This document shows positions 1,811 to 20,839 of a stretch of 64,000 nucleotides of DNA, one piece after another. The stretch is from Candidatus Heimdallarchaeota archaeon. GTDB taxonomy: Archaea; Asgardarchaeota; Heimdallarchaeia; JABLTI01. Each line of letters begins with the position of its first letter. Within the stretch, counting starts at the first letter, position 1. A model generated the notes under the pieces. The model worked only from the letters and a program-made list of their open reading frames with translations, did no database searches and had not been told where the DNA came from. Where the stretch lies: assembly GCA_018238155.1 (NCBI GenBank), contig JABCTZ010000012.1:1-64000 (forward strand), given 5' to 3'. A program made the position numbers and the translations under genes.

Positions 1811-2542
1811 TTAAAATAATTTTGTTTGTTTGGTCTTTTCAATTAATTCAGCAATGCATCGCTCACCTTGATTTCTAGGTGAGTTAACAAATGTTGAGAT
1901 AGGATAAGCTGTCATAGCAGAAGCAGTGTAAGGTTTTAGCAATGATTTTATTTTTTCCGTTTCTTGGATGGTTGGGTTTAACCACAAATCAAAGTCTTTT
2001 GGCTCAATAATCAGTGGCATTCGTTTGTGAATGGGTTTCACAATTTCATTAGGAGCGGTGGTAAGGATAGAACACGATTCCAAAACCTTGCCTTGAGGAC
2101 TAGTCCATGTATCCCAGATTCCTCCTAAAGCAAATGGTTGTTTGTCAGTTAATTGAATGAAAAACGGTTTTTTCCCTTCTTTTTGCTTTTGCCATTCATA
2201 GAACCCATCGACAGGAATGAGACATCGATGTTTTTTGAATGCTTCACGAAAGGTTGGTTTCTCGGCAACAGTTTCTGATCGTGCATTTATTGCCTTGGTG
2301 CCAATTTGAGGGTCTTTTGCCCAGAAAGGAATTAGACCCCAACGAAAAGCAGTAACTTCTTTAGAGAATTCTCTCAGTGAAGCACTTCTTTGTTGAGCAT
2401 CTCGAATAATAATTCCTCTAACAGCAAAAACATCCTGACCTGGTGTGATATTATACTGAGGCACTAAATTAAGGAATTCGTCTAATTGAAAGAGCATCCG
2501 AAATATATGTGCCGGAGAAAATCGGGCAAATCTTCCACACAT
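1811..2542 (-). CDS. SRAP family (HMCES/YedK-like) abasic-site processing protein
   Basis: True start at MCGRF (catalytic Cys2, ATG at 2542). Motifs WGLIPFW, INARSET, GFYEW, IHKRMP. Confidence 0.93.
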   Translation of the reverse strand: MCGRFARFSPAHIFRMLFQLDEFLNLVPQYNITPGQDVFAVRGIIIRDAQQRSASLREFSKEVTAFRWGLIPFWAKDPQIGTKAINARSETVAEKPTFREAFKKHRCLIPVDGFYEWQKQKEGKKPFFIQLTDKQPFALGGIWDTWTSPQGKVLESCSILTTAPNEIVKPIHKRMPLIIEPKDFDLWLNPTIQETEKIKSLLKPYTASAMTAYPISTFVNSPRNQGERCIAELIEKTKQTKLF

Positions 2543-2626
2543 TTTTATCATCTCAATAGTTCTATCTAATAATAGACATTTCTTCTTTATATTCAATACG
2601 ATAAAGAAATCGTGTTTTCTTCGATT

Positions 2627-3259
2627 TTAGTGATAACAGATAGTACTATTGGTTCGTTCTGCTATCTCAAGAAATGTTGCTTGCGATTCATCTGAAGAAT
2701 AGTCAAAGGGGCAAACATCATTGGAATATTTTCTAACAGTGAAATGAATATGAGGAAATTCGCCACCGTTGAGAAGAAGACCAATTTCATCACCAACTTC
2801 AACTCTTTGACTGAATTTGACATAGATATTGGATAATTGAGTTTCGTGAAATTCAGTGGAATTGGAATACGGCTCAAAAACAATCATAATTGACCATACA
2901 AGATTTATTCTAATATTTATGCTAATCATAATGTGTCCTTTGTTTGTGTTGACTGAAGAGGAAATCAATCCGACTGTCCCAGTACAAGGTGAAATCACTT
3001 TTGAAGCATTTTCAATTTTAAGATCGATGCCTGTATGATGCCCTCCATCAGATTCTTCCTCAATGAGATTGTAACCTCTAAGCCAGATGATATCATCCGG
3101 ATTTTCAAAAGGAAACTCAAGAACGGGAGTGCCATATGCTGGGTCCCATTTCATCATAAAAGGTAGTGTTGGAATAATTATTCCAGTTACTAGTAAAATC
3201 GAACCAAGTAATATGAGGGTAATTTTAATACTTTTTTTCATCTTGACCGACCTAATCAT
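2627..3259 (-). CDS. M23-family peptidase with N-terminal TM anchor
   Basis: HTGID (HxxxD) and PHIHF (HxH) zinc motifs, VEVGDEIG, N-terminal TM helix. Confidence 0.8.
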   Translation of the reverse strand: MIRSVKMKKSIKITLILLGSILLVTGIIIPTLPFMMKWDPAYGTPVLEFPFENPDDIIWLRGYNLIEEESDGGHHTGIDLKIENASKVISPCTGTVGLISSSVNTNKGHIMISINIRINLVWSIMIVFEPYSNSTEFHETQLSNIYVKFSQRVEVGDEIGLLLNGGEFPHIHFTVRKYSNDVCPFDYSSDESQATFLEIAERTNSTICYH

Positions 3260-3266
3260 TCAGTGC

Positions 3267-4652
3267 TCAAGGTTTGAACTTTCGTTTATCAACTAGTCTT
3301 CTTCTTTTGATGTTATTATTAGGTAATTTATTAACAATGATAATTTGAGGTTTGTTTAGTGTTTTTGTAGTTTCAATATCGACTTTTATTGAGTCGAGGG
3401 AATAGAGTTTATCAATGATTTTTTGCTCGAGACTTTTAGAGCCATTCTTAGTTAGAATATATACTTTCATAGTATCTCTTTCATCTTCTCTAATAATCTC
3501 TATCCAATAATCTTGAACTTCAGTTATTGAATCAAATAATTTGTCGAAAACGATGGGATAGTATTTTTCGGCTGCACCAATAATTACTCTATCATCAGCT
3601 CTTCCCTTAATATAATCAATTCTCGGTAACTTCATTCCACACTCACAATTACCAAGAATGATTCGGGAAATATCTCCAGTGCGATACCTAATTAATGGCA
3701 TAGCTTCTCGGCTCAGTGAGGTTAAAACTAGCTCGCCCCATTCTCCATCTTCAACTAATTCCTCTGTTTGAGGGTCAATTATTTCCAAAATTGAACTAGG
3801 AAAAACATGATAACCATTATGAGCTTTGCATTCGGAACCAATACCACCACCGAATTCATTCAAGCCATAATTCAGAAAAACTTCTCCACCTAATCTTTCT
3901 TCGATGATCTTTCTACGATGTTCTGGTAAACCTTCCCCACCCATCATAATTGCCTTCATTTTTCCCTTGCTTCGTTCTGATAAGCCTATTTCTTTAGCAA
4001 GATTGTAAACATAAGAAGGTGTGCCAAAAATAACTGTTGTTTCAAATTCTTCGATAAATTTCTTTTGATCTTGGAAATTCATATAATTGCCTGTTGGTAA
4101 AACCACTATCTCGAGTGTTCTAAGTGCATCTTGAATATGACTTGCCAATGCCCAAACACCATATGAATAAACAATTTGGGCAATATCTGAAGGATTAATG
4201 CCACAGTTTATCATACCTAAAATATAGCTATATTTTAGACGCTGAAGATCATTTTTGCTATTAAAGATTGTCTTTTTGTTTCCTGTTGTTCCATAGGTGA
4301 AATGAACTGAAATTACTTCAGATTTAGGGATTGCTAAAAAATCTTCAGAATTTGCGGATACAGCTGCAGAAGTCGTAAATGGAAGTGTTCTTAAAATGGA
4401 ATAGACATTCTTACGGTCTAATTTTCGTATATATTTAGGAAGCGTTTTTCTATAGTAGGGTGAATTTATTGCACTGTGTCTTAAGATATTGACTGCATTG
4501 ACCCTCTTTGAGAATTCTGATTGGTTAATATCTACTGTGGAAATTTTTCTTTGCACTCTATCCAAATCTAGCTTGTCTATCAACTGTCTGAATTGTCGTA
4601 ATCTTCTATTGATAAAATAGGTGAGTATTTTTTGTGAGGTCATGTTTATCAA
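3267..4652 (-). CDS. Phenylacetate-CoA ligase family (PaaK-like) adenylate-forming enzyme
   Basis: TYGTTG, GTPSY, YGLNE, GELVLT, PLIRYRTGD, GRADD. Confidence 0.85.
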   Translation of the reverse strand: MINMTSQKILTYFINRRLRQFRQLIDKLDLDRVQRKISTVDINQSEFSKRVNAVNILRHSAINSPYYRKTLPKYIRKLDRKNVYSILRTLPFTTSAAVSANSEDFLAIPKSEVISVHFTYGTTGNKKTIFNSKNDLQRLKYSYILGMINCGINPSDIAQIVYSYGVWALASHIQDALRTLEIVVLPTGNYMNFQDQKKFIEEFETTVIFGTPSYVYNLAKEIGLSERSKGKMKAIMMGGEGLPEHRRKIIEERLGGEVFLNYGLNEFGGGIGSECKAHNGYHVFPSSILEIIDPQTEELVEDGEWGELVLTSLSREAMPLIRYRTGDISRIILGNCECGMKLPRIDYIKGRADDRVIIGAAEKYYPIVFDKLFDSITEVQDYWIEIIREDERDTMKVYILTKNGSKSLEQKIIDKLYSLDSIKVDIETTKTLNKPQIIIVNKLPNNNIKRRRLVDKRKFKP

Positions 4653-4766
4653 CCAACATCTAAATTATTAAGTATAACAAATATAACTATAATGAAATAT
4701 ACTATAACAAGAATGAATAGGTAAACAATTTAAATTATTCTTTAATTTTATGTTTGGTGATGTAAA

Positions 4767-6227
4767 ATGTTTGATTTTCAAGAACGATTTAAACAGCATG
4801 AGAAGAAGTTGACTGAAACTGATTACTTTCAAAGGGCATATACTTCTGCTCTTTATCATGATAACTGGAAAAAACATGTTGCTGATATAAGTAAACTAAA
4901 AGGTTTCAAAGGGCTTCGAGATTTGCCTTTTACAAGTGCGGATGACTTGCGAAGAATATGGGAAGCACACACAATCGAAGAAATAATACTGACCGATATA
5001 GTTGCTTGGTGGTACTGTACTTCAGGTTCAATGGGTAATAAGAAATGGATTCCTTGGACATATGCGGATTATACTCTAGCACAAGGAGCAATAGGCAAAG
5101 TCATTTTACAGTATCTAAAGCCAGAAGATAGATTGATGTCAATTATATTACCTCCGCCTTTTCTATCTGGTAGTTCACCATTTCGCATTCTAGATGGGAC
5201 AGCATCTTTAGGTCATCCAATTGAGCAATTGGCAATGGCTCCAGAGTATATACAAGACAGCTTTGGTTTGTTAATGAGACGGCAACCAACAGCAATTCTA
5301 GGTACACCTTCATTCATGTTACGTATTGCCGATGAAATAGCACAAAATGCACCTGCAATTCTTAGTAAGCAAGCTAAAGCGAAGAAAAGTACAAAATTAC
5401 GTATTGTTTCAGCAGTTACAAAAGTCCTCAAAGTAAAACCAAAACAAATCTTCAAAAAAATGCGTGTCGGATTCTTTGGTGCAGAACCATTAGATCCTTT
5501 CAGAAAAGCAATAGAAGATCAATGGGGACTTGAAGCATTTGATATCTATGCTTTCACAGAAGGGTTTGGTTCAGGGTATGAATGCTCCGAGCATTATGGT
5601 TTACACTTTCCGAATATAAATGGTATAATTGAGATTATTCCAGAAAAAGAATTAGAAAAAGAGGAGAAAGATTCAAACTACAAACCTGAAACGGTCATAA
5701 TACATGAGGCAGAGGTTGGTTTGAAAGGTGAAATCGTCTTAACAGATTTCAAGGATGCATTACCTTTAGTAAAATATCGAATTAGAGATTTAGTAGAAGT
5801 AGTAGCTGTTGGTGATTGCAGTTGTGGAGACGATTCTCCACGGTTGAAAATCCATGGAAGAACTGATAATGTGATTAATCTTGGTGTTATCAGATTGTCA
5901 TCCATAATCTTTAATCAATACTTAAGGAAAGATTTCAAATCAGGTGAAGTGAAACTCTGGGAAGTACTCGTCTCTCGAGTTGGGTACAAACCAAAAATAT
6001 CCCTAACTGTTGAACCTGAATTCATTAAGAATGAAGAGGAATTCAGAAAAGATCTCTTCGAGTCTCTACATAGCTTCGACATATTCCAAAGAGGATATGA
6101 TAACGAATTGTTCATCTTCGATGAAATAAAATTCGTAGATAATTTGAAACTAGAAATATACGGGCAAGGAAAAAGTAGGACTATTCAATATGACCCTGGA
6201 TACTTCAAAGAAATCAAATTCAAATAA
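4767..6227 (+). CDS. Phenylacetate-CoA ligase family enzyme (divergent paralog)
   Basis: TSGSMG, GTPSF, GAEP, YAFTE, PLVKYRIRD, GRTD. Confidence 0.8.
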   Translation: MFDFQERFKQHEKKLTETDYFQRAYTSALYHDNWKKHVADISKLKGFKGLRDLPFTSADDLRRIWEAHTIEEIILTDIVAWWYCTSGSMGNKKWIPWTYADYTLAQGAIGKVILQYLKPEDRLMSIILPPPFLSGSSPFRILDGTASLGHPIEQLAMAPEYIQDSFGLLMRRQPTAILGTPSFMLRIADEIAQNAPAILSKQAKAKKSTKLRIVSAVTKVLKVKPKQIFKKMRVGFFGAEPLDPFRKAIEDQWGLEAFDIYAFTEGFGSGYECSEHYGLHFPNINGIIEIIPEKELEKEEKDSNYKPETVIIHEAEVGLKGEIVLTDFKDALPLVKYRIRDLVEVVAVGDCSCGDDSPRLKIHGRTDNVINLGVIRLSSIIFNQYLRKDFKSGEVKLWEVLVSRVGYKPKISLTVEPEFIKNEEEFRKDLFESLHSFDIFQRGYDNELFIFDEIKFVDNLKLEIYGQGKSRTIQYDPGYFKEIKFK

Positions 6228-6228
6228 T

Positions 6229-6252
6229 TAACCAGATGAAATAATCTGGTTA
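6229..6252. terminator. Hairpin between convergent genes (possible bidirectional terminator)
   Basis: Perfect 9-bp inverted repeat TAACCAGAT-N6-ATCTGGTTA between the two stop codons. Confidence 0.5.
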
Positions 6253-7131
6253 CATTTCACTTATTTTGAAAACTTGAAATTGACAATGTTTGTCACCGGT
6301 AGCATGACAAGCAATTTCTCGAACAGAAATTTGTGGATTATTATAAGCTCCTTCGATAAAACCAGCAACAAAATCACAATCAAATACTTTTGTTTCACGC
6401 CCTCTGCAGAATGGGCATATTTGAAGGGTAATTATATTGTCATTGCATGAACAGATGCTTATTTCGTTGAGGATTTTCATTATTGCTTTATCATTTGTTT
6501 TCTTTTTGATCTTCTTCTCTGCTACATCTTTGCCAACTTCAATACCAAGTTTGTGCATTGTATAATGCATTTCTTCTTCAGGAAGCTCTTTCTGGAAATT
6601 TCTAGTCATTCTTATTGTTGCTTCTGGAAATTTATCAACCAATTCTTCCGAGAAATTACTGAGCTTCTCGATAGCTTCGATGGAAATACTTGGAGGAATA
6701 TTTGCTAAGAGATTAGGATTATTTCTGACTATATTTTCACACATTTGAACTATTTTGCGAACCTTATCCGCAAAAGGGAAGAAGATATCCCTGCGAACTG
6801 TACCATCAAAGTTCTTTAGCTCCTCCTGATACTCCTTAACAAATTCTCGATAAAGCAAAGCAACAATATGCTCTGCTATTGTTTCATCATCATCTATTGA
6901 TATTTTTGCGACAGTGATTAGATTTTCCATCACCTCATAGACAAAAATATGCTCTTCAATTTCTATTTTGGATAAATGACCTGCACCTAATTCAGATGTA
7001 AAAGCTACTATTGCACTAGAAAATCCTGCGAAAAGTTCTTCGGGTAGTTGGACAGTAAATGAATTCTCTTCTAATCTAATATGGAATAAGCTTAGACCAT
7101 CTCTCCGTAGAATAAAGAATTCATCTAGCAT
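6250..7131 (-). CDS. Longin-like domain fused to a V4R (Bet3/TRAPP-fold) domain
   Basis: N-terminal FILRRDGLSLF...LFAGFSSAIVAFTSEL...IEIEEHIFVY longin pattern. C-terminal CPFC...CDFVAGFIEG...EIACHATGDKHCQF V4R signature. Confidence 0.8.
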   Translation of the reverse strand: MLDEFFILRRDGLSLFHIRLEENSFTVQLPEELFAGFSSAIVAFTSELGAGHLSKIEIEEHIFVYEVMENLITVAKISIDDDETIAEHIVALLYREFVKEYQEELKNFDGTVRRDIFFPFADKVRKIVQMCENIVRNNPNLLANIPPSISIEAIEKLSNFSEELVDKFPEATIRMTRNFQKELPEEEMHYTMHKLGIEVGKDVAEKKIKKKTNDKAIMKILNEISICSCNDNIITLQICPFCRGRETKVFDCDFVAGFIEGAYNNPQISVREIACHATGDKHCQFQVFKISEM

Positions 7132-7206
7132 AGCTGTTCACGCATCAATTGTAGATAAAAAGTGGTTAAAAGGATTTTCAATGTACCTATTAACCTTTAC
7201 TGATAA

Positions 7207-7638
7207 TCAAAATTCATTGGTTGGAGTAGGTTCCATTTCTTTTGCAGGCTCTTCTTCGTTTTCTTGGGGCTCAACACCAAAGAGTCTTGCTGAAAAAGCA
7301 AAGAACCGGAAAAAGCCCACAACAAGAATAATAGCTCCAATGAGAAGAGTAACATCCTTAGTAACTTTCCAGAATTTATAGAAATTATTTGTAAACCAAA
7401 CAAATTCATCAAAGAGATTCATAATAGCATGAATAAAACCGAGAATGACAAAGATTAATGCTTCAATAAATCCATGTTTGAGCAAAATAGGTGTTTTTGA
7501 GGCGGCAATAAGTAAGACCACTAAAAGGAACATAAATGCAATTAACGCTAAGAATTCAAGGAGGATATCTCTAACAGCTGAAAAGTCAAAATCTGTAAGC
7601 CACCGCTCAACTACTGAAGCAAACATATAGGAGGACAT
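7207..7638 (-). CDS. Small 3-TM membrane protein
   Basis: Three hydrophobic segments and an acidic tail; similar to 7641..7997. Confidence 0.75.
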   Translation of the reverse strand: MSSYMFASVVERWLTDFDFSAVRDILLEFLALIAFMFLLVVLLIAASKTPILLKHGFIEALIFVILGFIHAIMNLFDEFVWFTNNFYKFWKVTKDVTLLIGAIILVVGFFRFFAFSARLFGVEPQENEEEPAKEMEPTPTNEF

Positions 7639-7640
7639 TT

Positions 7641-7997
7641 TTATCGTACCTCCCAGATTTTAGCTGTGTAAAGAGCAATACGTAACAACCCCACACCTAA
7701 TAGAATTAAACCAATAAAGAGAAATGATGCTTCCATACTGTCAAAAACATCTTTAGCAATACCTGAAGAAATGGTGTCTAGTCCATCAAATAATCCTTTT
7801 AAGGCAATTAATGGAGCGGCAATAACTAATTCAATCCAGCCATTATGTGTGAGCTGTGGAAATTTACCACGAAGCACGAAGAGTAGAACACTAATTATCG
7901 TAAAACCAATAAAAAGGCAAATCTCAACTGAAAACGTTAGAATATCTTTAGTCTCAAGAGCCCACTCAATTGCCATTAAATTTAGCATAAATATCAT
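7641..7997 (-). CDS. Small 3-TM membrane protein, paralog of the downstream gene
   Basis: Shared pattern (KFPQLTHNGWIE vs KTPILLKHGFIE); 2-nt gap to the next gene. Confidence 0.75.
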   Translation of the reverse strand: MIFMLNLMAIEWALETKDILTFSVEICLFIGFTIISVLLFVLRGKFPQLTHNGWIELVIAAPLIALKGLFDGLDTISSGIAKDVFDSMEASFLFIGLILLGVGLLRIALYTAKIWEVR

Positions 7998-8178
7998 CTG
8001 AAGTGCATTTGATAGTAGACTTTAAAATCCTTTCTTACTATAAATATATTTGTCGGGGTAAAACACCGAGAGATTTACAGAAAATGAATCAATTTATTTT
8101 TCTTTCCAAACGTTTAAATTCCATTGAATATTCAAATTCATTATAAATTATTTCTATTTAAAACTGAAGAGTGAATCT

Positions 8179-9678
8179 ATGAATTGCGATCAATCAAATA
8201 AGGGGAAATCTTTTGAAGAAACCGAAATAGATTCACTTACAATTGAAAAAAATGATTCAGCAATACTGCCAGAACCGTTTCAATCAGCTCTGGAAAATTC
8301 AGAGGAAATACAAGGACAAACAACACAATCTCCAAAACAAAGGTCACAGCTATTTTATTTGATATCTGCTGGAAGTGCGACAGGACAGCAATTTCTATTT
8401 AATTTCTTTTCTGCTTTTGCTGTGCTCGTTGGTGTTACACCAGTTCTTCTTGGTTTCATAACATCAATTCGAAATTTAATGAGCTCCGTATTCCAAGGAA
8501 TAATTGGAAAATTAAGTGATAAAATGGGTAGGCGTTATTTGCTTTTGTTGGGATTTTTCATGGCTTTCTCAAGCTTTGTTGTTCTAATGTTTGTAAATAA
8601 TGTAACAATGTTAATCATAATCTCTGTAATTCAAGCTTTCTCATTGAGCATTATCATTCCAGTTTGGAATGCTACGTTAGGTGATGTAACCGAAATAGAT
8701 GATAGAGCAAGTTATATGGGAAAATTGTCTGCAATGGGGACTGCAATCTCTGTAACTCTAATGCTAGGTTTAGCTGTCGTTTTTTATCTAGCAAGTGATG
8801 TATTTGACGGGTGGGTCATTCTCGGTTGGACTGTTTCAGTAGCAGAAAAAACTAAATATATCGTTGCTTTTGGTGTGGCTGCACTCAATTTCTTCTTGTG
8901 TTTATTAGGTGCATTTCTACTTCAAGAAACGAGAATAATTAAAGATAAAACGAAACCACAACCTAAGATGTTCCTTGCATTGAAAGATCCTACTTTTAGA
9001 AAATATTTCATAGTTAATTCTATATTTGGATTAATAATGGCTACAATGTGGCCTATATTTCCAATCGCTCAAATAGTCATATTAGAAATGACTTTTACAC
9101 AAATAGCAATAATAAATGCTATTTTCGCTGCCTGTGCAAGTTTAGCACAATATTTTGGTGGAAAACTAAGTGACAGAATTGGAAGAAAACCACTGATTAT
9201 TTTTAGTCGTGTTTCAATGTTTACTATACCAATAGTAATGATTGGAGCTATTTTTACAAATAATTGGTTGTTGCTTATCATTTCAAATGTAATAGGTGGA
9301 ACAGCAATAGGGGTAGTAAGTGTAGCTCATAATGCATACCTCTTAGATATTTCTCCAAGAGATCAAATGGGTGCATATTCCGGTTTGAATCAAGTGGGTT
9401 GGGGTATAGCAACTTTTATTGGTTCGTTATCCGCAGGATTCATTGCAACTGCAGTAGAAAATGCTGCTCCAGTTGAATTAGTTGGTGACGAAAGAACAAG
9501 ATACATGATATTAGTAATGTTTACTGCTATTGCCATTCTAAGATTTTTAGTTTCACTTGGCTTTTTCTTCATTAAAGAGAGTTTCAATAAAGAGTCTCGA
9601 GATGCTTTGAATGAACGAAGAAAAAATGGTTATCATCCAGAATATTCTAACGAAGACTCCTCTTCTCAAATGAAATAG
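8179..9678 (+). CDS. MFS transporter
   Basis: Motif A twice (GKLSDKMGRR, GKLSDRIGRK); about 12 TM. Confidence 0.92.
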   Translation: MNCDQSNKGKSFEETEIDSLTIEKNDSAILPEPFQSALENSEEIQGQTTQSPKQRSQLFYLISAGSATGQQFLFNFFSAFAVLVGVTPVLLGFITSIRNLMSSVFQGIIGKLSDKMGRRYLLLLGFFMAFSSFVVLMFVNNVTMLIIISVIQAFSLSIIIPVWNATLGDVTEIDDRASYMGKLSAMGTAISVTLMLGLAVVFYLASDVFDGWVILGWTVSVAEKTKYIVAFGVAALNFFLCLLGAFLLQETRIIKDKTKPQPKMFLALKDPTFRKYFIVNSIFGLIMATMWPIFPIAQIVILEMTFTQIAIINAIFAACASLAQYFGGKLSDRIGRKPLIIFSRVSMFTIPIVMIGAIFTNNWLLLIISNVIGGTAIGVVSVAHNAYLLDISPRDQMGAYSGLNQVGWGIATFIGSLSAGFIATAVENAAPVELVGDERTRYMILVMFTAIAILRFLVSLGFFFIKESFNKESRDALNERRKNGYHPEYSNEDSSSQMK

Positions 9679-9693
9679 TTAGTCAAATTTCAG

Positions 9694-11118
9694 TTAACCA
9701 CTATTTAATTTTCCATTCTGGCGATCTTCTCTAACATTTTTTGGTAGGCTTTCAGTAACAAAGAAAAAACCTACAGAAGCAAAAAATCTTAGAATTGATA
9801 TTCCAATTAACATCCAAAATATCGTAAAGAATAAACCATAAGACGATTCTAGAGAATCAATAATGAATCCTGATGCAAGAGAACCACAAAAGGTTGTAAT
9901 ACCAAAGAACAATTCTCGAATACCAGAATATGCTCCCATTAAGTCATCTGGAGCTAAATCTAAAGTTAGAGCATTAAGAGAAACGAAAAATGTTCCTGTG
10001 CCAAAGCCTGCTAAAGTATTAGCCGCAATTAACCAAAGCCAATTTCCAGTAACAATTGCAGGGAGCATGCTAACAGGATAGAACACTAAAACAAAGGCTC
10101 CAAAAACGAATAACGGCTTCCGACCAAATTTATCGCTTAACTTGCCAGATATTACCTGAACCAAACTCATGACCATTATAAAGACAGAAGAGAGAATGGC
10201 TATTTGATAGAACTCCATATTAAGATACTTCACTTGAAGAATAGGACTTACCGGCCAAAAAAAGGACAAACTAAAACCAAACAAAGAGTAGAAAGCAACA
10301 AATTTCATGAAATTTTTATCTTGAAAAGCAATACGCATTTGAGGGCGGTTGTGAGTAAGATCCTCACTTCTAGTTTCTTTAAGGCTTAAAATAAGGGCGG
10401 AAGCAATTAAGGAGTTTACTGCTGCAATAGCAAACGCAATGCTATATTGTACACGCCAGTCAATATAAACAGTCCATCCTCCAATGACCCACCCCTCATA
10501 TACATTAGTAAGATAAAAGATCAATGCAATTGCAAGCGAAAATGAAACTGAAATCAAGCGACCTAAAGAAGCAATTTTACCAATAAAAGTTGCTCGAATC
10601 TCAGGTTTTGTTACATCACCCAATAACGCATTCCATGTGGGAACAAAGATACTGAGTGAGAGAGCTTGGATAATAGCAATAGTTACGATTAACCAAGTAC
10701 TTTCAAAGAAAATCAAAGGAACTGTTATCGCGAAATTCAAAAAAATACCTATGAACAAAATGAATTTTCGACCCAATTTGTCACTTAAATAACCAATGAA
10801 TGGTTGGAAAACTGAACTGAGCAAATTACGGATGGAGGTAATAAAACCCATTAATGCTCCTGTAACATTTGCTTCAGCAGCAAAAGCTGAAAAGAAATTA
10901 CCAAAGAAAAATTGCCCAGTAGAAGTGAAGACAGATAATAACCAGAAGAGGATTTTTTTATTTCCTTTAGTATCTATGAGTGGTTCTTCTTCAGGTATCA
11001 CTTGTTTGTCCTTGTCAATACTAGCATCCGCAATATCTACAATTGTAGTTCTATCCATAATTGCTACAGATGGGTTAGGATTATTTCCCATTTGTTCTAA
11101 TACATTTTCGTCATTCAA
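9694..11118 (-). CDS. MFS transporter (paralog)
   Basis: GYLSDKLGRK, GKLSDKFGRK; WNALLGDVT shared with its neighbours. Confidence 0.92.
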   Translation of the reverse strand: MNDENVLEQMGNNPNPSVAIMDRTTIVDIADASIDKDKQVIPEEEPLIDTKGNKKILFWLLSVFTSTGQFFFGNFFSAFAAEANVTGALMGFITSIRNLLSSVFQPFIGYLSDKLGRKFILFIGIFLNFAITVPLIFFESTWLIVTIAIIQALSLSIFVPTWNALLGDVTKPEIRATFIGKIASLGRLISVSFSLAIALIFYLTNVYEGWVIGGWTVYIDWRVQYSIAFAIAAVNSLIASALILSLKETRSEDLTHNRPQMRIAFQDKNFMKFVAFYSLFGFSLSFFWPVSPILQVKYLNMEFYQIAILSSVFIMVMSLVQVISGKLSDKFGRKPLFVFGAFVLVFYPVSMLPAIVTGNWLWLIAANTLAGFGTGTFFVSLNALTLDLAPDDLMGAYSGIRELFFGITTFCGSLASGFIIDSLESSYGLFFTIFWMLIGISILRFFASVGFFFVTESLPKNVREDRQNGKLNSG

Positions 11119-16796: not shown

Positions 16797-18197
16797 TCAA
16801 TATTTTGTCTTAGAAGATCGATTTTTTTTTGGTAAGCTTTCTTTGATGAAAAAATAACCAACAGATGCGAGAGCTCTCATAATTGCTATTGCAATGGTAG
16901 TGGAGATAACCATGATAATCGGTCCATAGGTTGAGCTAATTGCATCAGCAATAAAACCCGCGCTCAGAGAACCAATAAAAGTTGCAATGCCCCAAGAAGC
17001 ATGAGCTAAACCTGAAAATGCGCCCAAAGTTTCTGTCGATGAGAGATCTAAAACATAAGTATTCATCAATACTAAGAAAATACCATTACCAAAACCACTA
17101 ATGACATTTGTTAACATGATATAAAACCAGGAACCAGAGAGCACAGCAGGAATATACAGAAGAGAAACACTAAACATAATTACTCGAGAGAAAATAAGCA
17201 CAGGTTTTCTACCAAAACGGTCACCCAATTTTCCACCAAGAAAACCACCAAAACTGAAAAAGATAACGTAAATTGCTGCAACAACAGTTAATTCATAAAT
17301 TTTTAAACCCATTATAGAAACTTGAATAACAGGATAGATAGGCCAAAGGGCAGCCATAGAGATGCCGAAGAAACCATTGACAATGATGAAATTTCGGAAC
17401 GATTTATTCTGAAAAGCAGTAATCATTTTCGGTTGAACTCGAGAAGAATCCTTTATTCTTGTTTCCTTTAGAAAGATAACCGCAATTCCACTGATAAATA
17501 AGGTAAGAGCACAAACAGCAAAAACAATGCCATATTGGAGCTTCCAATCAAGACCAGTAATGAGTTTTCCCAAAACAATGTATCCATTAAAGCGATCAAA
17601 GAAAAAGAATATGCATGCAAGTATTAGCATTAACACTACACCTACTGCTTGACCAATTGCACTCAATTTGCCTATGTATGTTGTTCGTCCTTTCAATTTT
17701 GTGATATCCCCTAAAGCAGCATTCCATGCAGGGATAATAATACTAAAAGCAAATGCTTGAGCAGTAGCAACAATGACTAACATTATCGTACTGTAGGAAA
17801 AAATAAGCATAGCAGAAAAGGCAAAACTAAAGAAAAAACCAAGCAAAAGGAAGAGCCTTCTCCCTTTTTTATCACTCCACAAACCAATCCGACCTTGAAA
17901 GAGAGCACCAACCAGATTTCGAATTGCAGTAAGGAATCCCATAACCGTTGAGGTAACACCAACTTGAGCGGCAAAATAGGGGAAGAAATTGAGAAGAATG
18001 AGTTGAGAGGTATTACTACCAATGGAGAGCAACCAGAATAATTTTCGTTGAGGCTTTTCAGAAGTGTTTTCAGCTTGATCCTCTGAGTCATCAAAAGAAT
18101 GCTCTTCAAAGCTATCTTCATTTGAATGAACTTCTTTGCTCTGTTCTTCTGATAATTTATCTGTCGTTGTAGACAACCTCAATAAGCGAATTAACAA
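16797..18197 (-). CDS. MFS transporter (paralog)
   Basis: GLWSDKKGRR, GKLGDRFGRK, WNAALGDIT. Confidence 0.92.
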   Translation of the reverse strand: MLIRLLRLSTTTDKLSEEQSKEVHSNEDSFEEHSFDDSEDQAENTSEKPQRKLFWLLSIGSNTSQLILLNFFPYFAAQVGVTSTVMGFLTAIRNLVGALFQGRIGLWSDKKGRRLFLLLGFFFSFAFSAMLIFSYSTIMLVIVATAQAFAFSIIIPAWNAALGDITKLKGRTTYIGKLSAIGQAVGVVLMLILACIFFFFDRFNGYIVLGKLITGLDWKLQYGIVFAVCALTLFISGIAVIFLKETRIKDSSRVQPKMITAFQNKSFRNFIIVNGFFGISMAALWPIYPVIQVSIMGLKIYELTVVAAIYVIFFSFGGFLGGKLGDRFGRKPVLIFSRVIMFSVSLLYIPAVLSGSWFYIMLTNVISGFGNGIFLVLMNTYVLDLSSTETLGAFSGLAHASWGIATFIGSLSAGFIADAISSTYGPIIMVISTTIAIAIMRALASVGYFFIKESLPKKNRSSKTKY

Positions 18198-18261
18198 AAC
18201 TAGACCTCTCGCCTAAAAAAGAATTGTGAAAAATCTCAATAGTTAACTGAAAAAAAATCCT

Positions 18262-19614
18262 TTAAGACTTAGGAATTGCTTTTCCAAGATTTATTTGGTC
18301 ATTTTTCGGCAAACTTTCACTGATGAAGAGAAAACCAGTCGCAGCGAAAACTCTCAGGACAGTAACACCAATGGACATGATAATCATAGTTGTTTTTATT
18401 GTATAATTTGCTGTAAGAAAAGCATCAATAATGAAACCTGAAATAAAGGACCCTATGAAAGTAGCAATACCATAAAATACTTCGCGAATGCCAGAATATC
18501 CACCCATCAAATCTTTAGGAGCAAGATCCAAAGTGTACGCACTAACAGCAACAAGATTAATACCAGTTCCAATACCACCAACAAAACGAGAAAGGATGAG
18601 CAAAGACCAACTTCCAGAAGTGATGGCTGGGATCATACTAACTGGAAAGAAGAGCAAAATAAAAATAGAGATAATAATTAAGGGCTTTCTTCCAATCTTA
18701 TCACTTAATTTACCGCCTAAGATTTGAGCGATAGCAATAAAAATTGTAAAAGAAGAAGTCATAATAGCAATCTGCCAGAAAGTAAGTGTAAGATGATCAA
18801 CAAGAATAATTGGATTCGCAGGCCAGATCAAAGCCATGGTGATACCCCAAACAGAATTGACAATGAGGAATTTAACAAAATTTTTGTCCTGGAAAGCAAC
18901 ACGCATTCGAGGGACATGATTATTTTTAGGATCGACAAGGCGAGTTTCTTTGAAGAAAATCATTGTTATAATACAAAGTAATGAATTAAAGGCAGAGATA
19001 GCAAAGGCAACACCATATTGAACACGCCAGCTAACAAAGACTGACCAGCCTAAGACTACTGAACCAGAATAATGATCAACAAAGAAAAAGAGAAGTGCAA
19101 TTAATAAAGCAAAAATAACAGAAATTATTCTACCAATAGAAGTGATTTTACCAATAAAAGAAGCACGGTTTTCCAGTTCAGTAACATCTCCTAGAACAGC
19201 ATTCCAACTGGGAATGACCACACTAATAGCAAAAGCTTGGATAATTGCAACGGTAATAAGCAACCAAGTGCTCTCAAAAAAAAGTAAGGGAATGGGTATT
19301 AACAAACCAAGGATGAATCCAATAATAAGAATGAATTTCCGACCAAATATATCTGATAGACGGCCAACCAATCCTTGAAAGAGACCTGAAAGCAAATTAC
19401 GAATAGACATAAGAAAACCTAAAACTGAAGCAGAAACACCAGCTAAACGAGCAAAAGCAGAGAAAAACTGTTGAAAGAAATTCTGAGAAGAAGAGCTAAA
19501 AACAGAGATTGCCCAAAAGAGGCTAAGGCGATTTCCCTTGAGATTCAAATCTTGTGATGAATCGTCAGGAGTGGAAAACTCTTCATCTGATTTTGGTAAA
19601 ATTTCTTCGCTCGT
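18262..19614 (-). CDS. MFS transporter (paralog); start uncertain (ACG at 19614 behind a GGAG, or TTG at 19686)
   Basis: GRLSDIFGRK, GKLSDKIGRK, WNAVLGDVT. Confidence 0.88.
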   Translation of the reverse strand, partial: TSEEILPKSDEEFSTPDDSSQDLNLKGNRLSLFWAISVFSSSSQNFFQQFFSAFARLAGVSASVLGFLMSIRNLLSGLFQGLVGRLSDIFGRKFILIIGFILGLLIPIPLLFFESTWLLITVAIIQAFAISVVIPSWNAVLGDVTELENRASFIGKITSIGRIISVIFALLIALLFFFVDHYSGSVVLGWSVFVSWRVQYGVAFAISAFNSLLCIITMIFFKETRLVDPKNNHVPRMRVAFQDKNFVKFLIVNSVWGITMALIWPANPIILVDHLTLTFWQIAIMTSSFTIFIAIAQILGGKLSDKIGRKPLIIISIFILLFFPVSMIPAITSGSWSLLILSRFVGGIGTGINLVAVSAYTLDLAPKDLMGGYSGIREVFYGIATFIGSFISGFIIDAFLTANYTIKTTMIIMSIGVTVLRVFAATGFLFISESLPKNDQINLGKAIPKS

Positions 19615-19750
19615 GAAACTATCTCCAAAGACTACTTGAAAAATAAAGAAAAAGTAAATGTAAAAAAGGATTTGGATATGAATCAAAAGTATTAGGAATT
19701 CAAAAAGAACCTACCAGTTGAAACAGATGTTCATAATTAGCAAAAAAAGA

Positions 19751-20839
19751 CTATGACATCCACCTTCTACTTTTAGCTCTATTTAACATCAGCAAAATTT
19801 TGTGAGGAATTTTTGGTCGTACAAAATATTCTAACCAACCAGAACCTACAAATGGTTTTTGGTTTGCTGAATGCCCTTGAAAAGACACAAAAGAGCGAAC
19901 ATACATTATCAAATTACTTAGTACTTTTTCAAAAACCATTGACACGACAAACTCAGAGTTGTCTGATATAACTGAAACTTCATGGGGAATTTTAATGAGC
20001 CCCGTTCTTTTCCAGTTAGTTGGTGAGATATCAAATTCATAATAGAACTTTGGTTCTTTTTCTTTATCTTGTCGTGTGAAAAGAAAGCTAAGACAACCAC
20101 GATAGTTTTTCGTAGGAAGAACCCTAACAAAGATCATTGCTCGATCCTTACTATAGATGCGCCCCCAGTGCCATTGCAGATGAGTTTCAAGCATATCAGC
20201 TGTCCCCCAAGTGTGGTCATGGTATCCTGTTCCCTCAAGGGTAGTAGCCTGATCCTTAAGATTAATAGTTCCTTTAGCATGAAATAATGGAGCGGGAAAA
20301 ATTGCCGCAGAAAATTTCTTTGGGTCATGAATATGCCGAAAGTAGATACCATCTTCTCCAATTTTAAACCCTTGACAAAGGGGTCGGATGATAAAACTGG
20401 CTTTCAAATTGGGAATATCTACATTAATTCGATATTCTTCAATTTGTTGGTCGGAATTCCCTACAATTAAAATAGAGCTCTTACCAAAATGAATTTTCAT
20501 TTCATTTGTATCTGCTCTTTCCTCAATACGAAAATCACTTTCAGATAATAAATGGATTTTATTCCAATGCTTCTTTTCGTTTTTGATTTCAATATGTAAG
20601 TGTGGTTTTGATTTGTGAGCGGTGGGATCTCGTCTTTTGAATAAAATTACGAAAGAATCGCCATTTTCTGCTTCAACATCAAAATACCACCATTCAAAAG
20701 AAGCAGAATAGGTGAGAATATGTTCAGTTGTGATTTTAGGAAAATCATCTCTAAAACTAGTGAATAAAATTTCTGTTTGAAGAGCATCAGTACGAACAAA
20801 ATCAGATTTTTCCATGGTTTTTTCATTCATTTGAATCAT
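19751..20839 (-). CDS. AttH/CrtC-like (lipocalin-like hydratase/cyclase fold) protein
   Basis: EWWYFD, GYHDHTWG, WHWG and GWLE motifs. Confidence 0.7.
   Translation of the reverse strand: MIQMNEKTMEKSDFVRTDALQTEILFTSFRDDFPKITTEHILTYSASFEWWYFDVEAENGDSFVILFKRRDPTAHKSKPHLHIEIKNEKKHWNKIHLLSESDFRIEERADTNEMKIHFGKSSILIVGNSDQQIEEYRINVDIPNLKASFIIRPLCQGFKIGEDGIYFRHIHDPKKFSAAIFPAPLFHAKGTINLKDQATTLEGTGYHDHTWGTADMLETHLQWHWGRIYSKDRAMIFVRVLPTKNYRGCLSFLFTRQDKEKEPKFYYEFDISPTNWKRTGLIKIPHEVSVISDNSEFVVSMVFEKVLSNLIMYVRSFVSFQGHSANQKPFVGSGWLEYFVRPKIPHKILLMLNRAKSRRWMS

Follow-up and report, generated by a model that had tools for sequence, protein, structure and literature searches.

A longin-V4R fusion protein of Asgard archaea is strictly linked to the genes of two small membrane proteins

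Introduction

Our analysis of the window (the whole 64,000-nucleotide stretch of Heimdallarchaeota DNA considered here) finds that its longin-V4R fusion protein belongs, most likely as the soluble subunit, to a three-gene module known so far from Asgard archaea only, and that the conserved functional partners of the fusion are two small membrane proteins, TM-A and TM-B. We favor a reading in which the module acts as a membrane-docked ligand or redox sensor/adaptor, a mechanism that as a whole we hold to be somewhat better than an even bet (a probability of roughly 55%). Longin and Bet3-fold proteins make up the core of the eukaryotic TRAPP Rab-activating complexes, and their origin from Asgard parts is a question of eukaryogenesis. 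Through the linkage of the trio, what had been a structural oddity becomes a three-protein system with defined members, and the linkage matters for whether the ‘TRAPP-like’ parts of Asgard archaea act at membranes on GTPases or are instead ordinary V4R ligand sensors equipped with a longin adaptor.

A fusion of this kind is already in the literature. Tran, Akil, Senju and Robinson (2024, Commun Biol 7:273, PMC10933270) determined two structures of TRAPPC3 from Thorarchaeota, in which zinc sits at a Cys4 site, and presented a single longin-TRAPPC3 fusion sequence from Heimdall, MBD3190748.1, as an AF2 homodimer model (their Fig. 9g, Suppl. Fig. 10g and Discussion), inferring from the fusion that longin, TRAPPC3 and GTPases interact functionally. 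By exact look-up MBD3190748.1 corresponds to protein P0045 in our analysis, and it is 50% identical to the window’s protein over the full length (residues 1-289). The two share the same architecture (292 vs 293 aa), and the same two membrane genes lie upstream in the locus of the published protein (L008); MBD3190748.1 differs in coming from another lineage, and in the paper it stands as one sequence, given as a model only. We are highly confident that the window’s longin-V4R is an ortholog of MBD3190748.1 and that the three-gene unit is real. It follows from the orthology that the ‘Rosetta stone’ argument of the sequence-only reading is not new, the equal inference being already in print. The paper makes no mention of membrane partners, gene context or distribution of the fusion (the word ‘transmembrane’ occurs 0 times), and we found no description of the trio in the literature searched, including recent Asgard work on longin or TRAPPC3. 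As a sequence, then, the window adds just another ortholog of the published fusion; what is of practical value is the strict and deep link of this fusion to two dedicated membrane proteins.

Results

The fusion gene and its homologs

The longin-V4R gene (Table 1) is a real, conserved gene and a chance open reading frame is excluded. It has a GC content of about 34% in its surroundings, the window being AT-rich, and is single-copy in a source genome of 4.08 Mb (46 contigs, 90.7% complete). A search of 5.8 billion proteins returned 30 close full-length homologs at 52-92% identity, of which those named by source are all Asgard (Heimdallarchaeota, Gerdarchaeota, one labelled Thorarchaeota, and ‘Asgard group’), and more distant full-length relatives were found at 23-31% identity. 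The N-terminus is conserved from residue 1 in an alignment with 26 homologs, and the start codon is therefore correct. One cluster member among the homologs is labelled Bathyarchaeia, probably through a binning error.

Table 1. Coordinates of the three genes, the domains of the fusion protein and candidate sites in the window
Feature	Position	Strand	Description and basis
Longin-V4R fusion gene	6250..7131	(-)	Uninterrupted ORF, ATG start, 293 aa plus stop
Longin domain, residues 1-138	6718..7131	(-)	Strand-strand-helix-strand-strand-strand-helix-helix in the AF2 model
V4R/Bet3-fold domain, residues ~150-293	6253..6684	(-)	Four helices plus a four-stranded sheet with an inserted helix (AF2)
Predicted zinc site, C239-x2-C242, C252, E272, C275, C283	6283..6417	(-)	Conservation and alignment
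TM-B, 143-aa three-helix membrane protein	7207..7638	(-)	Alignments and AF2 model; 75 nt upstream of the fusion gene
TM-A, 118-aa three-helix membrane protein	7641..7997	(-)	Alignments; stop 2 nt from the TM-B start
Candidate archaeal TATA-like element, A/T run ATATATTTATA	8039..8050	(-)	~42-53 nt upstream of the TM-A start codon; by eye

Linkage and distribution of the three-gene module

In the window TM-A, TM-B and longin-V4R lie next to one another on the minus strand, separated by 2 and 75 nt, and as judged from the sequence the three genes are most likely co-transcribed. We scanned 400 Asgard genomes with a profile of the fusion and with a profile of TM-B. A full-length fusion match at E < 1e-77 was found in 30 genomes, all of which also have TM-B, and the TM-B profile matches 48/400 genomes in 24 of 85 genera. 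At the 30 loci of the fusion scan (L019-L048, from ORF and HMM analysis) TM-B lies beside longin-V4R in 28, with TM-A present too in 27, and the remaining two loci end at contig edges where partial TM-B matches are kept. A further 13 loci come from families with weaker TM-B matches, and all 13 hold TM-A and TM-B as well as a protein, 254-289 aa long, in which the V4R-domain profile finds a match; the longin-domain profile is also matched in 11 of them, and in the other two (family f25) the N-domain was recognized only by full-length BLAST alignment to Hodarchaeales members. For the last five of the 48 genomes adjacency was established by coordinates. TM-B was therefore never seen without an adjoining longin-V4R gene in the 48 genomes, and the linkage of the three genes is strict. 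A split form, with separate longin and V4R genes beside TM-A/TM-B, was found in none of the 48, the fused form adjoining in each. Moreover, a word-indexed profile search of 5.8 billion proteins placed the TM-B relatives, among named matches, in Asgard archaea only (Heimdall and Hodarchaeales), and gave no evidence of an older archaeal module in which the membrane pair accompanies a plain V4R. Since the distribution is patchy (the 48 genomes above, and only about half of the window’s own genus), we regard the module as accessory and not core.

Across the annotated loci TM-A and TM-B are separated by 0-14 nt, and the distance from TM-B to the fusion is 13-102 nt. A set of close loci (L001, L003, L005, L007 and L008) has the trio in common together with three or four MFS transporters, to which most of them add two PaaK-like ligases, an M23 peptidase and a SRAP gene; because these MFS (and mostly PaaK-like) neighbors are kept in the closer clade, part of the synteny there could reflect shared descent. 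In L009, L011 and L012 the fusion is just 26-31% identical and all other neighbors differ, and still TM-A and TM-B stand directly upstream with gaps of 0-6 nt (TM-A/TM-B) and 13-27 nt (TM-B/fusion). Gene order is permuted in L047, L052, L055, L058 and L061 (fusion, then A, then B), the trio genes are convergently oriented in L053 and L057, and a second copy of the fusion lies upstream of TM-A in L039, L040 and L042.

These observations bear on the possibility that there is no complex at all, and that longin-V4R is a free cytosolic small-molecule-binding protein whose adjacency to TM-A/TM-B results from co-regulation or inherited synteny. Some loci have as much as 75-102 nt between TM-B and the fusion, the spacer of the window contains a short T-run, and in family f25 the fusion gene and the membrane genes are convergent, so that they cannot be co-transcribed there. 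However, adjacency is found in 48/48 genomes from several Asgard classes and outlasts changes of gene order, of orientation and of all surrounding genes, which inherited synteny explains poorly, and we consider this explanation highly improbable. Gene linkage is evidence of shared function, which is distinct from physical contact.

The membrane proteins TM-A and TM-B

TM-A and TM-B are paralogs, as found by comparing their alignments with hhalign (probability 97.2%, E 2.9e-11), and neither matched a family in Pfam, NCBIfam or PADLOC. In its AF2 model (pLDDT 87) TM-B begins with a short helix, after which come long helices at residues 19-48, 57-79 and 84-119. Its conserved motif, M-D-x-x-D-E-F-x-W-F ... 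Y..WK, falls at the end of TM2 and the start of TM3, and its C-terminal tail is acidic. In TM-A the invariant residues are E25 in TM1 and D71, D74 and T75 after TM2. Counted over the alignments, K and R are abundant in loop 1 of both proteins (2.5 and 3.25 per sequence), making it basic, whereas TM-A has a strongly acidic N-terminus and loop 2. From this charge distribution and the positive-inside rule we infer a topology in which both proteins would have their N-termini outside, together with the acidic motif conserved at the TM2 end, and loop 1, the C-termini and the acidic tail of TM-B in the cytoplasm. A feature search of the protein atlas gave unnamed archaeal hypothetical proteins as the nearest clusters of both. 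A fold search with TM-B returned BAR domains, Vtc1, complex II small subunits and the membrane parts of sensor kinases, which are generic helical matches and were set aside as not specific. PADLOC matched none of TM-A, TM-B and longin-V4R, so that nothing places the trio in a known defense system.

The longin domain

We modelled longin-V4R with AF2 from a 27-sequence alignment (mean pLDDT 83.7, pTM 0.75). In the model the N-domain forms a five-stranded sheet in longin order without an N-terminal helix, which marks it as a longin as distinct from a roadblock domain, and conservation is highest along its central helix, in the motif LFAGFSSAI (residues 33-41). Additional support comes from a Foldseek search of the PDB, in which the 20 matches at E <= 0.001 are mostly of longin fold (zeta-COP, AP sigma subunits, Sec22b, Fuzzy and Mon1/Ccz1); after the longin chains the same search lists MJ1460, Thor-TRAPPC3, Bet3 and PoxR. 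The topology of residues 1-138 and the Foldseek matches thus bear out the N-terminal longin domain that had been proposed from sequence patterns.

The nearest solved sequence relative of the N-domain is longin domain 1 of Mon1 (profile search, E 8.7e-4); the same search found none of the TRAPP longins Bet5, Trs23 and Trs20, and in structure comparison non-TRAPP eukaryotic longins score at least as high as synbindin. A Pfam scan of 43 family members gave weak matches to Fuz_longin_1 in 8 and matches to Longin in 3. Among the sequence relatives of the N-domain are P0082, a fusion of a longin with an Arf-like GTPase, and longin proteins with NPRL3-like winged helices, and the N-domain therefore belongs to an Asgard expansion of longins that elsewhere is tied to GTPases. 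The tri-longin Rab GEFs (Mon1-Ccz1, Fuzzy-Inturned and HPS1-HPS4, the proteins of Fuz_longin_1) have three longins and act as heterodimers on Rabs, whereas longin-V4R has only one longin domain, followed by helices and the V4R and with no such three-longin array, so that the likeness is limited to longin domain 1.

The V4R domain and its Cys cluster

The window’s protein matches Pfam V4R (PF02830) at residues 235-287 with 33.5 bits against a curated cut-off of 31, the Pfam model spanning just the last 60 residues of the full Bet3/V4R fold, and all 43 family members match it (best E 8.9e-15). Together with the V4R/Bet3 fold of the AF2 model and the conserved Cys cluster described below, this confirms the C-terminal Cys-containing V4R domain of the sequence-only reading. 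The TRAPP family PF04051, in contrast, is weakly matched by 4/43 members (best E 0.014, far below threshold); it has no match at E <= 1 to the window’s protein and none in the whole source genome, and control genomes likewise gave none. In a profile search the C-domain is closest to the archaeal V4R protein MJ1460 (E 3.5e-6), ahead of Thor-TRAPPC3 (0.029 and 0.13) and MopR (0.31). Structure comparison scores PoxR/MopR at 13.2, Thor-TRAPPC3 at 13.1, Bet3/Trs33 at 12.5-12.8 and MJ1460 at 11.6, which by the comparison tool’s own rule is a tie among the four. A weak, sub-threshold NCBIfam match to the methanogen regulator MsvR was seen at the level of the V4R (E 6.6e-4).

In relatives down to 22% identity C239, C252, C275 and C283 never vary, and C242 and E272 hardly vary. 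HMMER aligns C239, C242, C252 and C283 with Cys positions of Thor-TRAPPC3, and C252, E272, C275 and C283 with the conserved C, E, C and C of MopR; thus the family retains the union of both ligand sets, at the positions where zinc-type V4R/TRAPPC3 domains (Thor-TRAPPC3, PoxR and MopR) use Cys or Cys/Glu ligands to tie the sheet to the last helix. In Thor-TRAPPC3 four Cys hold the zinc, and the protein has ligand cavities and is a homodimer (Tran et al. 2024, PMC10933270). Thor-TRAPPC3 (PDB 7YH2 and 7YH3) is a stand-alone domain of about 159 aa without a longin, its sequence similarity to the window’s protein is marginal at the E-values given above, and the window’s protein, unlike it, also keeps the E272/C275 pair typical of classical V4R. 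The XylR/NtrC-type phenol sensors PoxR, MopR and DmpR carry their V4R N-terminal to an AAA+ sigma-54 activator and an HTH, whereas the window’s protein, in which Pfam found neither domain, ends at residue 293 directly after the V4R and has a longin in place of the two. MJ1460 (PDB 2OSD/2OSO), which among solved structures is nearest to the C-domain by sequence, consists of one domain without an assigned function and MsvR has an HTH, and both lack a longin and membrane partners.

TRAPP and the link to GTPases

The sequence-only reading had seen both TRAPP core folds in one polypeptide, and from this a proto-TRAPP or ligand-gated GTPase regulator. The folds are indeed present by AF2 and Foldseek; neither domain, however, showed a specific likeness to TRAPP in these sequence comparisons, and as far as sequence comparison and modelling indicate longin-V4R is TRAPP-like at the fold level only. 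A specifically TRAPP relationship is not supported by the Pfam results (V4R in 43/43 members vs PF04051 in 4/43) or by the nearest relatives, MJ1460 and Mon1, which are not TRAPP subunits. In eukaryotic TRAPP the Bet3-type subunits (Bet3/TRAPPC3, Trs33/TRAPPC6 and Trs31/TRAPPC5) and the longins (Bet5/TRAPPC1, Trs23/TRAPPC4 and Trs20/TRAPPC2) are separate subunits of a fixed hetero-oligomer with Rab GEF activity, whereas longin-V4R has no TRAPP Pfam match, a single type of longin, no GTPase linkage, and two membrane partners foreign to TRAPP. The TRAPP exchange site requires a Bet5-Trs23 longin heterodimer and two copies of Bet3.

A genomic link to a GTPase, which would lend support to a TRAPP role but does not strictly define one, was likewise not seen. 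The source genome has 40 matches to the Ras family profile, none of which lies on the window’s contig, and an Arf/Ras gene occurs within 5 kb of the fusion in 1/9 annotated homolog contexts (L011 only).

In a proto-TRAPP, a dimeric longin plus Bet3-fold protein would amount to the smallest TRAPP-like core, anchored in the membrane by TM-A/TM-B, and would act on a Rab-, Arf- or Rag-like GTPase of the archaeon as a nucleotide-exchange factor (or as a GAP platform). With both core folds on one chain, an N-domain nearest to a longin of Mon1 (a subunit of the Mon1-Ccz1 Rab7 GEF), a longin-Arf-like GTPase fusion among its relatives, and a genome with this many Ras-like proteins, such a core is conceivable, and Tran et al. 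drew the equal inference from their fusion (PMC10933270). We nevertheless consider it unlikely, given that the TRAPP/Bet3 Pfam family is absent from the window’s protein and weak in few relatives, that the V4R is nearer in sequence to MJ1460 than to Thor-TRAPPC3, that non-TRAPP longins score as high as synbindin or higher, that GTPase genes are missing from the contig and rare in the other contexts, and that the single longin type contrasts with the heterodimer of the TRAPP exchange site. GTPase regulation would fit within the same TM-A/TM-B/longin-V4R architecture.

Discussion

The steps that we infer for a membrane-docked ligand or redox sensor/adaptor run from topology and docking through zinc and ligand binding and dimerization to a downstream partner. 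TM-A and TM-B would pair into a six-helix membrane platform, with the conserved acidic residues (TM-A E25, D71, D74, T75; TM-B D77, E78) lying in TM1 or at the outer end of TM2, and the basic first loops and C-termini facing the cytoplasm. Longin-V4R would dock on the cytoplasmic face of the pair, probably as a dimer held through the N-terminal helices of the V4R, the central helix of the longin, or both. Its V4R domain, held together by a putative Cys-bound zinc, may bind a small hydrophobic ligand or sense thiol redox state, and the longin might then serve as the dimerization and hand-over part that passes the state of the V4R to a partner, maybe one of the genome’s many small GTPases. We propose a ligand or redox sensor because of the structural ties of the V4R to the phenol-binding PoxR, MopR and DmpR and the weak match to MsvR, and a zinc site and homodimer because the Cys residues align with those of Thor-TRAPPC3 and the fusion has been modelled as a homodimer (PMC10933270). 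A complex prediction of the trio from alignments, with the fusion as the scored partner, gave ipSAE values of 0.24 and 0.05 against a mark of 0.32, which argue neither for nor against binding.

A bolder version of the same architecture would make the trio a receptor-coupled small-GTPase regulator, that is, a membrane-anchored, TRAPP-like signaling complex predating eukaryotes. Here the outward acidic site on the six-helix TM-A/TM-B pair would sense an external cation or ligand, and the docked longin-V4R dimer, once switched, would serve one of the approximately 40 Ras-superfamily GTPases as exchange factor or GAP platform. We regard this version as very doubtful.

The membrane link could also point away from signaling. 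The V4R/Bet3 cavity might take up a lipid, isoprenoid or other hydrophobic compound presented by TM-A/TM-B for transfer, insertion or modification. We find such lipid handling quite unlikely, since it leaves no role for the longin domain and the transporter and ligase neighbors that would suit it are missing in the distant members. In its favor, the strict linkage is to membrane proteins, and in the closer clade the module is surrounded by MFS transporters and mostly also by PaaK-like acyl/aryl-CoA ligases. Moreover, the equivalent cavity takes up palmitate in Bet3 and phenols in PoxR/MopR, and Tran et al. speculated on ‘ligand transport’ for Thor-TRAPPC3 (PMC10933270).

Organization of the trio across Asgard loci

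The longin-V4R fusion and its two companion genes, which encode the paralogous three-helix membrane proteins TM-A and TM-B, vary in both order and copy number among the Asgard genomes. In L039, L040 and L042 (genomes G324, G328 and G325, respectively) an extra longin-V4R gene lies immediately upstream of TM-A, resulting in the order fusion2, TM-A, TM-B, fusion1, and a permuted order (fusion, TM-A, TM-B) occurs in L047, L052, L055, L058 and L061, which span several Asgard families. Since in family f25 (L053 and L057) the fusion gene is convergent with both membrane genes, co-transcription of the trio is not universal. TM-B of L003 (5137-5937) is 266 aa long, its length being due to a short acidic C-terminal tail that has grown to ~130 residues, nearly all of them Asp, Glu, Val and Thr.

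A larger conserved block in the closer clade

We found that within the closer clade, taken as those loci whose fusions share 50-72% identity, the trio is embedded in a bigger conserved block (window 1811-11118, and L001, L003, L005, L007 and L008). Three or four MFS transporters occupy one flank of the trio in these loci, and on the opposite flank most carry a pair of PaaK-like adenylate-forming enzymes together with genes for an M23 peptidase, an SRAP protein and a family-B DNA polymerase. The gene downstream of the fusion on the opposite strand (see table) encodes a divergent member of the PaaK/F390-synthetase/GH3 adenylate-forming group; every Pfam and NCBIfam match to this protein falls far under the curated cut-off, and precomputed Pfam annotation is absent from its relatives. 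The trio might be functionally tied to the uptake and activation of aromatic or acyl acids, which is only a lead because the block is missing from the distant trio members.

Coordinates of neighboring and related genes
Feature	Location	Strand	Remarks
486-aa protein gene	window 4767-6227	+	convergent with fusion gene; 22 nt between their stop codons
362-aa ORF	window 19751-20839	-	Diels-Alderase N-terminal domain (PF24137) match just sub-threshold (26.7 bits vs cut-off 27)
508-aa ORF	G000:C21:169893-170663		two tandem V4R domains; own genome, outside window

Related longin and V4R proteins

Among the sequence relatives of the fusion's longin N-domain (P0082, P0071, P0079 and P0111), P0082 is an Arf-like GTPase fused to the same longin type, and the others (~420-430 aa) combine this longin type with C-terminal NPRL3-like winged-helix domains. 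Besides the tandem-V4R ORF, the window's own genome holds two more V4R ORFs, of 258 aa on contig C8 and 186 aa on contig C7. Elsewhere in the window, two additional MFS transporter paralogs (16797-19686) adjoin the 362-aa ORF.
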